Origin: a virus
Taxonomy: Duplodnaviria > Heunggongvirae > Uroviricota > Caudoviricetes
Virus record (IMG/VR): IMGVR_UViG_2537561977_000031
Span: 1 to 23,390 of that record
Reading direction: 5' to 3' (one strand)
DNA length: 23,390 nucleotides
This document shows, piece after piece, positions 12,156-15,165 of the stretch. The notes beneath the pieces were generated by a model. That model was not told where the DNA came from, did not search any database, and saw only the letters and a program-made list of their open reading frames with translations. The position numbers were made by a program, and so were the translations under genes. The number at the start of each line of letters is the position of its first letter. Position 1 is the stretch's first letter.

Positions 12156-12263
12156 ATGAAATCAAAAATCAAATCGCTACTGGTCGCTGGTTATAACCAC
12201 GGCTGGTTAAGTATTTCGTTTGTCGATTTCTGGTTTAAAAATCTCAATCTGAGGGAATCATGA
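12156..12263 (+). CDS. Small ORF (35 aa), candidate
   Basis: Starts 4 nt after the O-like stop; stop overlaps the primase ATG (ATGA); MKSKIKSLLVAGYNHGWLSISFVDFWFKNLNLRES. Confidence 0.3.
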   Translation: MKSKIKSLLVAGYNHGWLSISFVDFWFKNLNLRES

Positions 12264-15165
12264 GGCCAAGTGAACTTAGCGACCTGCTTTGGGCGCAGGT
12301 TGACAGGGTGGCTCCGCACCTGTTGCCAAATGGCAAGAAAGAGGGGCATGAGTGGGTTGCCGGTAACGTCAACGGTGACAAGGGAAACAGCCTTAAGGTC
12401 AACCTTAGCGGCAAGAAAAAATGGGCTGATTTCGCTGAGGGAGACGGCGGTGACATGCTTGATTTGTGGATGGCATGTCGTGGAATTAACCTGCATCAGG
12501 CTATGCAGGAAGCGAAAGCATTTCTCGGTATCAAGGATGACGATCACCATTTCGATGCCAGACGTGAGAAGAAATTCTCCAGACCTGATCGCAAGAAAAT
12601 CGCCCGCTACGTTACCAGAACAGAATCCCATCTTGAGTACCTGCAATCGCGTGGCATATCGCCAGAAGTCGTAAAGCGCTACGAGGTTGTCAGCGGCAAG
12701 GTGTGGAATGGAGAACGAGAACTGGATGCTCTGGTGCTTCCGTACAAACGCGATGGTGAGTTGTTGCAGGTCAAGCGAATCAGCACTGAGCGCCCGGACG
12801 GGAAGAAAGTCATTATGGCAGAAGGTGATTGCGAACCTTGTCTGTTCGGATGGCAGGCTCTGGACGCTGGCGTGAGGGCGGTTGTACTTTGCGAAGGCGA
12901 AATTGATTGTATGAGCTATGCGCAATACGGCATCTCGGCGTTATCCGTGCCGTTTGGTGGCGGGAAAGGCGCTAAGCAACAGTGGATTGAGTTTGAGTAT
13001 CACAACCTCGACAGGTTTGAGGAAATATTCATCTCGATGGACGTTGATGATGTTGGTCGTGAAGCCGCAAGGGAAATCGCAAGCCGACTCGGTGAACATC
13101 GTTGCCGTCTTGTTACTCTGCCGTACAAAGACATCAACGAATGCCTGATGAACGGTGTTACCGAGGATGAAATCTGGCAGTACATCGGCACGGCATCCTA
13201 CTTTGATCCTGAAGAACTCTACAGCGCGCGAGAGTTTTACCAGGACACTATCAACGCTTTCTACAGCAAGCAGCAGTATCTGTTTAATCCACCGTGGGAA
13301 TCTCTGGCAGATAAATTCCAGTTCCGTGAGGCCGAGTTGACGCTGGTCAATGGTGTGAACGGTCACGGAAAGGCATGCCCACTGAATGAGCCTATTCTTT
13401 TAGCTGATGGGACATGGACTACTCACGGGAATGTAAAAATTGGCGATCAGGTGGCGTCAGTAGACGGCAATCCGTCAACTGTCACTGGGATATTCCCGCA
13501 GGGTGTTAGAGATGTTTACCGAGTCACATTTGAAGATGGTCGTTATGTTGATTGCGCAGGCGATCACCTATGGGAGGTCACTAGTCGTGGATTCACGAAA
13601 GGCGAGAAACGCCGCGTGATAGATACCTTCGGGTTGAAGCGGTTGAGTGAAACGAAGAGGCACAAAAATGGCGTTAGGATTCCTGAAATAACTGGTGACT
13701 TTGGCGACCACTCAGAGCCATTAGCATGGGTTATCGGCTCCCTTCTCGGGGATGGTAGTCTTAGCAATGGGAGCGTGAAGTTTTCAAACGTCGAGCCATA
13801 CATGATCGAGCGTATGAAGGCTGAACTGCCTGATTACAACTTCTCTGGAGATGGTAAGGACTGGCTGATATCAACGGCGCGTGGTCAGGTAAATCCACTC
13901 ATGGAGACCCTGCGAGGTTATGGACTAATGGGGTGCACAGCAAAAAACAAATTCATCCCTCGTGTGTTTTTTCCGCAAATAAATCAACGCGTATAGGCAT
14001 GCTGTGTGGTCTGCTTGAAACGGATGGGTATGTCGAGAAGGATGGAACGCTTGTTTTTTCCTCAGCAAGTGAAGAACTGCGCAATGGGGTTGTTCAACTG
14101 GTTAACTCACTCGGCGGGTCATGCCGGACGCGAGTTAAAACTGGCGTGACATACACATACAAGGACGATAAGCGGCATGGGATGGATTCATACGAGGCAA
14201 GAATCAGACTGACAAGAGAAATCAGGGAGGCCATCCGTTCACCACGACTCAATGGCAGATTAACTGCGCATCGATTCGAGGGCTGTGGGGTATTCGTCAG
14301 GAATGTTGAAAAAATCGGCAATGCAGAATGCTTGTGTATTATGGTCGATCACCCTCGCCACCTGTATGTAACCAGGGGATATGTGGCGACGCATAACACC
14401 GAGGTTGTCGGGCATATGGCACTTGAGGCAATGCGTCAGGGTGTGAAGACGTGCATCGCGTCACTTGAGCTGAAGCCTGGTATTCTCCTTAAGCGCCTTA
14501 CCCGTCAGGCGACGTGCTGCAAGATTCCGCCAGTGCTGGAAATTGACTCTGCATTTAAATTTTATGACGAAAGACTTTGGGTGTTTGGCCTGACCGGAAC
14601 GGCGAAAGCCGACAGGCTGATCGAAATATTCGACTACGCTCGCCGCCGATACGGGATCCAGTTATTCATCATCGACAGCCTGATGAAATGTGGCATAGGC
14701 GACGATGACTATAACGGGCAGAAGGCGTTTGTTGACTCGATTTGCGACTTCAAAAACAAAACAAACTCCCACGTCATTCTCGTTACTCACTCGCGAAAAG
14801 GAGACAGCGAAGAAAAACCAACCGGGAAAATGGACGTAAAAGGCTCTGGAGCGATAACAGACCTGACAGACAACCTTTTCATCATCTGGCGTAACAAGGC
14901 TCGCGAGAGAGCGTTACAGAGAGTTCAGAGTGGTGAAAAGATGTCAGAGAAGGACGAACAGCTACTGGCATCTCCGGCATCTGTTTTAATGCTTGAAAAA
15001 CAACGTAACGGCGAAGGTTGGGAAGGTGGTGTCCCGTTGTTCCTTGACGAGCAATCGCACCAGTTCCTGCAACTTGAATCAGGATCGCCATATAGCTACA
15101 TCGCCAATATGCCGAAATCGGAATATGACGAGGCGTGGCGACAGGAAAACGTGACGGAGTATTAA
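12260..15165 (+). pseudogene. Bifunctional Toprim primase / SF4 (DnaB/T7 gp4-like) helicase carrying an intein; reading frame broken by a 1-nt frameshift inside the intein (or a sequencing error)
   Basis: Toprim motifs CEGEIDCMS and SMDVDDVG; P-loop-like GVNGHGKA; helicase motifs LFIIDSL, HSRKG, LEKQRNGEG; two track ORFs (12260..13996, 13933..15165) in different frames overlapping at a T6 run 13967-13972. Confidence 0.75.
13376..14397 (+). other. Intein with LAGLIDADG homing-endonuclease domain (about 341 aa if frame corrected)
   Basis: Starts at Cys (CPLNEPILLADGTW, block A-like); block B-like DCAGDHLWEV; LAGLIDADG motifs LAWVIGSLLGDGSL and GMLCGLLETDGYV; terminal IMVDHPRHLYVTRGYVATHN followed by Thr +1. 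Confidence 0.7.

Follow-up and report, generated by a model that had tools for sequence, protein, structure and literature searches.

A putative class 3 intein in the Walker A motif of a prophage primase-helicase, with its reading frame broken by a probable homopolymer miscall

The window, by which we mean the whole 23,390-nucleotide stretch of DNA analyzed here, contains at 12260-15165 a gene that joins a Toprim primase domain to an SF4 helicase domain, in the manner of T7 gp4 and Twinkle, and that is interrupted at the helicase P-loop by an intein. In the ORF listing the gene appears as two pieces: an ORF at 12260-13996 encodes 578 amino acids with the C-terminal end ...KFIPRVFFPQINQRV*, and another at 13933-15165 lies one base out of frame with it. 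Adding one T to the T6 run within the intein gives a single ORF of 968 amino acids that reads ...KFIPRVFFSANKSTRIGMLCGLLETDG..., and both the position of the run and the effect of the extra T are as the original prediction had stated. An antisense ORF of 244 amino acids (12191-12925) is assumed to be a by-product of the coding strand. The host gene is made up as follows.

12260-13372, + strand: N-extein, residues 1-371, ending in the Walker A part GVNGHGK (13352-13372) at the start of the helicase domain
about 12347-12535, + strand: DnaG-like N-terminal domain without zinc ligands (NCBIfam dnaG, Foldseek)
about 12884-13147, + strand: Toprim primase domain, with CEGEID at 12890-12907 and MDVDDVG at 13037-13057
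14398-15165, + strand: C-extein, comprising the remainder of the SF4/RecA-like helicase domain; it begins with the Walker A Thr and continues to the stop codon
14659-14685, + strand: Walker B-like QLFIIDSLM, in the C-extein

The N-extein matches Pfam Toprim_2 (E 3e-12) and the T7 gp4 primase 1NUI (E 8e-14), Foldseek pairs it with 2AU3, T7 gp4, Twinkle and 1D0Q, and there is a match to PHROG 239, 'DNA primase/helicase' (E 2e-171). The C-extein matches Pfam AAA_25 and DnaB_C weakly and is 98-100% identical to intein-less primase-helicases. Toprim and SF4 helicase domains, a Walker A motif GVNGHGKT and a Walker B motif are the components of a T7 gp4-type bifunctional primase-helicase, and by its predicted domains the gene is the replicative primase-helicase of a lambdoid prophage, with T7 gp4/Twinkle architecture; the Toprim_2, 1NUI and PHROG 239 matches agree with the Toprim/SF4-helicase fusion first proposed. 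Some sources call orthologues of the protein 'twinkle protein'.

The N-terminal domain had been described as a DnaG-type zinc ribbon that has lost its Cys/His ligands, and its resemblance to the DnaG zinc-binding domain in both fold and sequence is confirmed by NCBIfam dnaG (residues 26-143, E 9e-10), hhalign and Foldseek. T7 gp4 and DnaG have four zinc ligands, whereas the ligand columns here hold G35, N38, D57 and E60 (Gly, Asn, Asp and Glu), so that the T7 gp4-type ligand set is absent; none of 75 family representatives has Cys at the four columns. Metazoan Twinkle has undergone a similar loss of zinc ligands. It was the family profile and hhalign that aligned the DnaG zinc-binding region; pairwise phmmer against E. 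coli DnaG left this region unaligned, and Pfam gave no match in the N-terminal 202 amino acids, even at E 10.

Where exactly does the intein begin? Near-identical alleles of the host gene that lack the in-frame insertion are 1881 nt long; about 210 E. coli genomes have them, as do phages Sf101, mEp043 and ES18, the Sf101 protein being gp45. They read GVNGHGK/TEVVGHM (the slash marks the insertion point), the alignment gap is a clean 342 amino acids, and the Sf101/mEp043 allele runs ...GGTCACGGAAAAACGGAGGTTGTC... across the site. Because the intein-less alleles read this way, the insert is 342 amino acids starting at Ala (13373), placed between the Lys and Thr of the Walker A motif GVNGHGK/T (residue 372); GVNGHGKT is kept in all 16-17 aligned orthologues. 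The insert had previously been taken to be about 341 amino acids from a Cys at 13376, with that N-terminal Cys as a hallmark and a P-loop reading GVNGHGKA. These details need correction: the start is one codon earlier, the P-loop is GVNGHGK-T, and the Cys is residue 2, a position occupied by M, Q or I in related inteins. Such inteins, in DnaB, PhoH and DnaB-like proteins, have Ala1 directly after the P-loop GK and a variable position 2. The placement of an intein in the helicase P-loop stands, since intein-less alleles exist and intein structures in the PDB match the insert; it is neither a normal helicase segment nor lacking in intein-family similarity, its matches being class 3 inteins. In intact alleles the intein has 342 codons; in the window it has 1025 nt, one T short.

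13373-14397, + strand: intein, Ala1 (13373-13375) to Asn342 (14395-14397), absent from intein-less alleles
13538-13573, + strand: splicing block B, GRYVDCAGDHLW, with His65 (13565-13567) and Trp67 (13571-13573), aligned to MchDnaB1 His65 and Trp67
13721-13762, + strand: first LAGLIDADG motif, LAWVIGSLLGDGSL, with LLGDGS; LLGDGSL is conserved in related inteins
13967-13972, + strand: T6 run and frame break; all relatives examined have T7; TAG 13994-13996 ends the upstream frame
13990-14034, + strand: second LAGLIDADG motif, RIGMLCGLLETDGYV, with LLETDGY, readable only in the -1 frame of the window
14323-14400, + strand: splicing blocks F and G, AECLCIMVDHPRHLYV ... GYVATHN/T, aligned residue by residue to MchDnaB1 Cys124 and Thr143-His-Asn

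The insert has splicing blocks A, B, F and G and a C-terminal His-Asn followed by a residue of the Ser/Thr/Cys set, and the ...VATHN then Thr at 14395-14400 (THN/T at 14389-14400) is the ending originally noted. Its best PDB matches are the class 3 inteins 6RIX, 6RIY and 6BS8, plus PI-SceI; MchDnaB1 (6RIX) is the top solved structure at E 2e-9, MsmDnaB1 (6BS8) is also found, and both HINT halves align to 6RIX, 6RIY and 6BS8. Pfam Hom_end_hint, at 25.5 bits, falls below its gathering threshold of 32.1. Class 3 inteins were defined, with their non-contiguous WCT triplet, by Tori et al. 2010 (PMC2807308); their splicing has an absolute need for an internal block F cysteine and goes by way of a branched intermediate at block F. 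Here Trp67, in the HLW of block B that is conserved in related inteins, is the W of the triplet (B:12), Cys322 (14335-14337) is predicted from its alignment to MchDnaB1 Cys124 to be the block F:4 nucleophile, and Thr340 (14389-14391) is G:5, followed by His341, Asn342 and Thr+1 (14398-14400); the triplet Trp67/Cys322/Thr340 thus corresponds to MchDnaB1 Trp67/Cys124/Thr143. Position 1 is Ala, with no Cys, Ser or Thr nucleophile of the kind that initiates the N-S/O acyl shift in class 1. Judged by its sequence, the insert is a class 3 intein. It is very improbable that it is instead a standard class 1 intein running from the Cys at 13376 with Ala as an extein residue: although CPLNEPILLADG resembles a Cys-initial block A, a Cys start would leave GVNGHGKAT after splicing and break the GK[ST] Walker A motif kept by orthologues and intein-less alleles, and we reject it because the extra Ala (GKAT) is seen in no aligned orthologue. 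The Ala at position 1 of related inteins, their M, Q or I where this one has Cys, and the WCT triplet also count against class 1.

Both LAGLIDADG motifs of the original prediction are found, and each ends in an acidic residue, as in two-motif LAGLIDADG endonucleases, with the two motifs in different frames of the window. Pfam LAGLIDADG_3 matches intein residues 207-262 (E 1.5e-8, 35.2 bits against a cut-off of 22.5), and the region of the second motif aligns at E 8e-8 to PI-SceI residues 282-359, with the catalytic Asp of SDG/TDG among the aligned positions.

Among 5426 complete E. coli genomes, 79 hold an intact copy of the intein at 99-100% identity. The gene itself is found in about 290 E. 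coli genomes, so that the supposed rarity of inteins in enterobacterial prophages was overstated for this gene; besides the 79 with the intein, about 210 have the allele that lacks it, and the exteins are about 98-99% identical. The intein also occurs in the Stx2a phages phi24B and Min27 and in a Klebsiella phage. InBase may also have an entry 'EP-Min27 Primase', a name for which a full-text literature search found nothing. Among nine intact alleles the intein comes in just two haplotypes, against as many as 22 differing sites in the N-exteins, and the codons flanking the insertion, AAG/ACC in the intein alleles, show synonymous changes relative to intein-less alleles. The patchy distribution, the low diversity of the intein compared with the exteins and the flanking synonymous changes lend indirect support to the predicted homing. 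An intein has been reported for replication protein P of phi24B (PMC3430580), and InBase lists inteins of Shigella flexneri prophage primases, 'ShP-Sfv ... Primase' (PMC2807308). The intein is therefore already known, intact and common in Stx2a phages, from phi24B P and InBase.

The frame break is peculiar to a single record. The best 40 E. coli matches all span 2907 nt, against 2906 nt in the query, and across 2906 nt the absent T is the one difference between the window gene and that of FDAARGOS_944. An IMG/VR pattern search returned no T6 match and 12 contigs with T7, while exact-pattern scans of JGI metagenomes found neither and so do not discriminate. The T6 allele is confined to the E. 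coli LT-68 draft record ADUP01000053, with no other assembly or viral contig sharing it, and ADUP01000053.1 is likewise the sole source of the truncated 578-amino-acid product. This draft, assembly GCA_000188815.2, also deviates alone at four more homopolymer sites (7387, 21150, 21182 and 21353); the last three, spanning about 200 nt, lie within 901 nt that are free of substitutions, and the four together break two more ORFs. Because T6 is unique to one draft, and that draft deviates alone at these four sites as well, the frameshift is probably an assembly artefact, a homopolymer miscall in the LT-68 draft, and the real gene is then probably intact. The original choice between an inactivated gene and a sequencing error is thereby tilted toward an assembly error, and inactivation is less favored.

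The surroundings of the gene could be read in favor of inactivation.

9928-12152, no strand assigned: O-like HTH replication-initiator gene, split into parts at about 9928-10248 and 11715-12152, upstream of the primase-helicase
10291-11487, - strand: ISEc20 (IS110-family) transposase gene, splitting the initiator gene (near-identical FDAARGOS_944 annotation and source-contig gene calls)

Since ISEc20 splits the initiator gene, the replication module of the prophage is already disrupted, and an IS1 lies in its early-left region; selection on the helicase may thus be relaxed and a real frameshift tolerated. Homopolymer runs are natural indel hotspots, and at a further homopolymer site, 17784, the outlier is FDAARGOS_944 rather than the window. 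A genuine one-base deletion, which would make the primase-helicase/intein gene a pseudogene in a decaying cryptic LT-68 prophage, is nevertheless unlikely: the gene otherwise matches FDAARGOS_944 throughout its 2906 nt, the LT-68 assembly has its lone homopolymer deviations at four other sites, and T6 is in no other assembly or viral contig.

Far less probable still is a functional two-frame arrangement, in which programmed -1 slippage at the U/T run, ribosomal or transcriptional, would produce the full-length protein, or the two polypeptides would reassemble in the manner of a split intein. The downstream frame is indeed -1 relative to the upstream one, and slippage in the P site on UUU UUU would yield ...VFFSANK..., as in intact alleles, but the relatives all have T7 and one continuous ORF, so the two frames are not conserved, and the canonical X XXY YYZ heptamer of a slippery site is absent. 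Promoter-like sites ahead of the downstream ORF do not exceed chance expectation. With single-ORF relatives and no signal above chance, programmed frameshifting and internal restart were both rejected. There is a slim chance that T6 is real and that some active helicase arises by low-level -1 slippage on U6, with the wild-type ...VFFSANK... as its product, or by non-covalent reassembly and then trans-splicing of two polypeptides split inside the endonuclease domain, which would constitute a naturally fractured class 3 intein.

The preferred reading, to which we give a probability of roughly three in four, is that a class 3 intein interrupts the Walker A motif of a prophage primase-helicase and that the frame of this gene is broken by a probable T miscall. 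The insertion, its boundaries, motifs and distribution, and the uniqueness of T6 are the observations on which this reading is built; the splicing chemistry, the homing activity and the status of T6 as an error are its predictions. A mobile class 3 intein would have inserted between the Lys and Thr of GVNGHGK/T, and the intact 968-amino-acid precursor would splice by the class 3 route: Cys322 (F:4), activated by His65, Trp67 and Thr340, would attack the Lys(-1)-Ala1 peptide bond, the N-extein would be transferred to the Thr+1 side chain, cyclization of Asn342 would free the intein, and an O-to-N shift would restore GVNGHGKT. The LAGLIDADG endonuclease would cut intein-less alleles at ...CACGGAAAA/ACGGAGGTT..., and gene conversion following the cleavage would carry the intein from one co-resident lambdoid phage to another. 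The frame in the window would be broken solely by a T7 run recorded as T6.

The value of the analysis is mostly corrective. It supplies the right boundaries and the mechanistic class of an intein whose host gene annotation pipelines label just 'toprim domain-containing protein', and flags a probable assembly error that might otherwise pass for a pseudogene. The intein lies in the replication helicase of the clinically important Stx2a phages. The literature has already asked whether the conditions for splicing might restrict replication of the phage and with it the output of toxin, a question to which the window adds nothing new.

The host protein has the same domain order as T7 gp4 and mitochondrial Twinkle: a ZBD-like N-terminal domain, a Toprim RNA-polymerase domain and an SF4 helicase. 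With class 3 inteins, of which the mycobacteriophage Bethlehem DnaB intein is the prototype, and with MchDnaB1 (6RIX) and MsmDnaB1 (6BS8), the present intein has in common a residue 1 that is no nucleophile, the WCT triplet, Thr+1 and a site within the P-loop of a helicase. It is, however, only about 20-30% identical to these inteins, and the solved MchDnaB1 and MsmDnaB1 chains (145 and 139 amino acids) are mini-inteins, whereas the present intein carries a full LAGLIDADG endonuclease. This two-motif domain nested in a HINT domain is shared with PI-SceI (the VMA1 intein) and other LAGLIDADG intein endonucleases, but PI-SceI is a class 1, Cys1 intein of the V-ATPase, and its target site and DNA-recognition region are unrelated. 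Closest are the inteins of phi24B (vB_EcoP_24B) P and Min27, which have the same host gene, insertion point (residue 372) and intein at about 99% nucleotide identity. Those copies have T7, whereas the window copy has T6 and two ORFs and lies in the non-Stx, IS-riddled LT-68 prophage; the S. flexneri prophage copies are truncated elsewhere, after ...SSASEELR.

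The T7-gp4/Twinkle-like primase-helicase gene of the window is occupied by two open reading frames, identified from the ORF listing and by direct reading:

12260-13996, plus strand: upstream ORF of 578 aa
13933-15165, plus strand: downstream ORF, overlapping the upstream one and one base out of frame with it

The frame breaks at exactly six T residues by direct reading (13967-13972), and, as the original prediction held, one added T restores a single ORF, which on translation runs continuously for 968 aa through ...KFIPRVFFSANKSTRIGMLCGLLETDGYV.... After removal of the insert that interrupts it, the host protein matches Toprim_2 (Pfam, E 3e-12), with weak matches to AAA_25 and DnaB_C, and PHROGs 'DNA primase/helicase' (E 2e-171); a search with its Toprim region hits the structure of T7 gp4 primase (E 8e-14). 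A GC hairpin with a T-run (15195-15228), 30 nt past the stop codon, is terminator-like; such sites are no more frequent in the surrounding region than expected by chance.

Is the short T-run an inactivating mutation or a sequencing error, alternatives that had been left side by side? We favour the latter, and put the probability that the frame break is an assembly artefact at roughly 80%. In public records the 578-aa truncated product appears once, as EFZ56568.1, encoded by contig ADUP01000053.1 of the draft E. coli LT-68 assembly that the window comes from. The gene in the comparator E. coli FDAARGOS_944 equals the window over all 2906 bases, the sole difference being a T7 run, and is annotated as one intact 'toprim domain-containing protein'. 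All 40 matches listed from complete E. coli genomes exceed the query length by one base, T7 is also found in O157:H7 WS4202, 95NR1, FDAARGOS_943 and phage Min27, and a pattern scan of IMG/VR contigs returned 12 with T7 and none with T6. The window differs from its nearest relative by seven homopolymer lengths in ~15 kb, and at five of the six sites that could be compared with third-party genomes (7387, 13967, 21150, 21182 and 21353) it is the lone outlier. At 7387 the window has T7 and six genomes are each one base longer, consistent with T8 in FDAARGOS_944; at the last three sites it has A4, A5 and A6 versus A6, A8 and A5 elsewhere, within a 901-nt stretch with zero substitutions relative to three independent genomes. 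Two ORFs that are whole in FDAARGOS_944 and other genomes are broken by these extra deviations, one hypothetical (178 aa) and one of the YdfR family (176 aa). Several homopolymer indels without a single substitution are the signature of homopolymer miscalling, and an artefact is favoured.

A real mutation in this gene would nevertheless be tolerated, since ISEc20 has already split the O-like initiator gene immediately upstream, in the window strain as in FDAARGOS_944. At the sixth site, 17784, it is FDAARGOS_944 and not the window that deviates. We regard a genuine T6 allele as unlikely. The neighbouring features are:

9928-12152: O-like HTH replication-initiator gene, interrupted by ISEc20, an insertion common to FDAARGOS_944
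10291-11487, minus strand: ISEc20 (IS110 family) transposase
20269-20424: tRNA-Asn (GTT) and tRNA-Thr (TGT) genes, downstream of a Q-like antiterminator gene

Relative to FDAARGOS_944, the window is 21 nt longer at 10219-10239 and has a flipped 3-nt hairpin loop (11722-11724), both near the ISEc20 ends, as well as a ~767-nt segment with an IS1 transposase gene (~6454-7220) that is missing from that near-identical prophage. The tRNA genes lie at the late-region position that tRNA genes occupy in a related Stx2a prophage, that of strain 95NR1.

The insert is missing from other alleles of the gene: a probe of the two joined extein flanks finds a contiguous match in 210 E. coli genomes, and phages Sf101, mEp043, ES18, epsilon34 and others have 1881-nt intein-less genes. 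Since the intein-less alleles read GVNGHGK|TEVVGHM in protein alignment and GVNGHGKT is kept in 17 of 17 aligned Enterobacterales orthologues, the insert is assigned 342 residues, ACPLNEP...VATHN, starting at 13373. The predicted P-loop intein is upheld in outline, with its boundary shifted by one codon, and the proposed N-terminal Cys gives way to Ala. Cys was tried as residue 1 and rejected: splicing would leave GKAT, with the Walker A motif destroyed. Ala also directly follows the P-loop GK in related inteins from one DnaB, one PhoH-like and one DnaB-like protein, where position 2 is M, Q or I. Among solved structures, the insert matches two class 3 inteins best, MchDnaB1 (6RIX/6RIY, E 2e-9) and MsmDnaB1 (6BS8). 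In the alignment with MchDnaB1, His65, Cys322 and Thr340-His-Asn of the window intein fall on the triad His65-Cys124-Thr143, and Trp67 falls on Trp67. Class 3 is defined by no N-terminal nucleophile, a Trp-Cys-Thr (WCT) triplet and a +1 Ser/Thr (Tori et al. 2010, PMC2807308); helicase P-loops are where most of its members sit. The window intein has every one of these defining sequence features, and it is predicted to splice as a class 3 rather than a class 1 intein: the block F Cys would attack, and splicing would pass through two branched intermediates.

LAGLIDADG_3 is found in the insert above threshold (Pfam, E 1.5e-8), together with a sub-threshold Hom_end-associated Hint match. Both expected LAGLIDADG motifs are present, with the terminal Asp conserved in each; the second can be aligned to PI-SceI. 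The gene region is matched in 296 of 5426 complete E. coli genomes, at full length in 79; the intein is present in these 79 and absent in ~210, with exteins ~98-99% identical. Among nine intact alleles there are just two intein haplotypes, separated by 6 of 1026 sites, while the N-exteins of these alleles vary at up to 22 sites. The codons flanking the insertion (13370-13372 and 14398-14400) are AAG/ACC in all intein-bearing alleles and AAA/ACG in the three intein-less alleles examined, synonymous changes consistent with a co-conversion tract or with homing-site protection. The patchy distribution, low haplotype number and flanking codons are indirect signs of homing by the predicted endonuclease.

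The DnaG-type zinc ribbon without Cys/His ligands, also foreseen, is borne out:

12347-12535: DnaG-like N-terminal domain; the four zinc ligands are all missing, family-wide

Residues 26-143 match NCBIfam dnaG (E 9e-10), and a family profile aligns to E. coli DnaG over its residues 30-100 (hhalign, E 7e-4), placing the ligands Cys40, His43, Cys61 and Cys64 on Gly35, Asn38, Asp57 and Glu60. The family comprises 2804 clusters at E <= 0.001; among 75 aligned representatives none has Cys at the four ligand columns, Gly35 and Asp57 are nearly invariant, and Trp55, Phe58 and Asp65 are invariant as well. The AlphaFold model is moderate (pLDDT 62; N-terminal domain 64-85); its structural matches are Aquifex DnaG, T7 gp4, Twinkle and, with an rmsd of 2.7 A over 80 columns, the DnaG zinc-binding domain on its own (1D0Q). 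Ligand loss is old in the family rather than peculiar to this locus, and has a parallel in metazoan Twinkle.

In distant family members (P0178, P0185, P0276) the identical GK|S/T site is occupied by another class 3 intein lineage, ALSLDTPIP...VRCIQVD...IPTHN|S/T, apparently nearer to the MchDnaB1 intein than the window intein is. Two others (P0169, P0261) have an apparent class 1 intein, with Cys1 and SGN|C, in the catalytic Toprim motif EGE|xD, a second insertion site in the family. The intein-containing gene occurs in Stx2a phages F403, F451, phi24B, Xuzhou21 and Min27 and in Klebsiella phage phiKp_30. In Min27 (NC_010237), two extra C-extein bases relative to O157:H7 WS4202 (gene positions ~2497 and ~2509) divide the gene between 'P' and 'ORF31 DNA primase'; in this gene family, they seem to be additional sequence errors. 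The intein is already known: Smith et al. 2012 (PMC3430580) placed it at residues 372-702 of phi24B P, with orthologues in a Shigella flexneri prophage and Min27. New here are the explicit Ala1/WCT assignment for the window allele and the frameshift assessment. Fragmentary S. flexneri versions likewise read ...VFFSANK... and are interrupted elsewhere than the window copy; three (P0004, P0008, P0016) end ...SSASEELR and resume at MVDHPRHLYV..., with Walker A GVHGHGK. Judged from these sequences, the S. flexneri disruption is a different and real one, and the truncated copies agree with the entries that InBase marks as 'partial, stops before block F' (Tori et al.).
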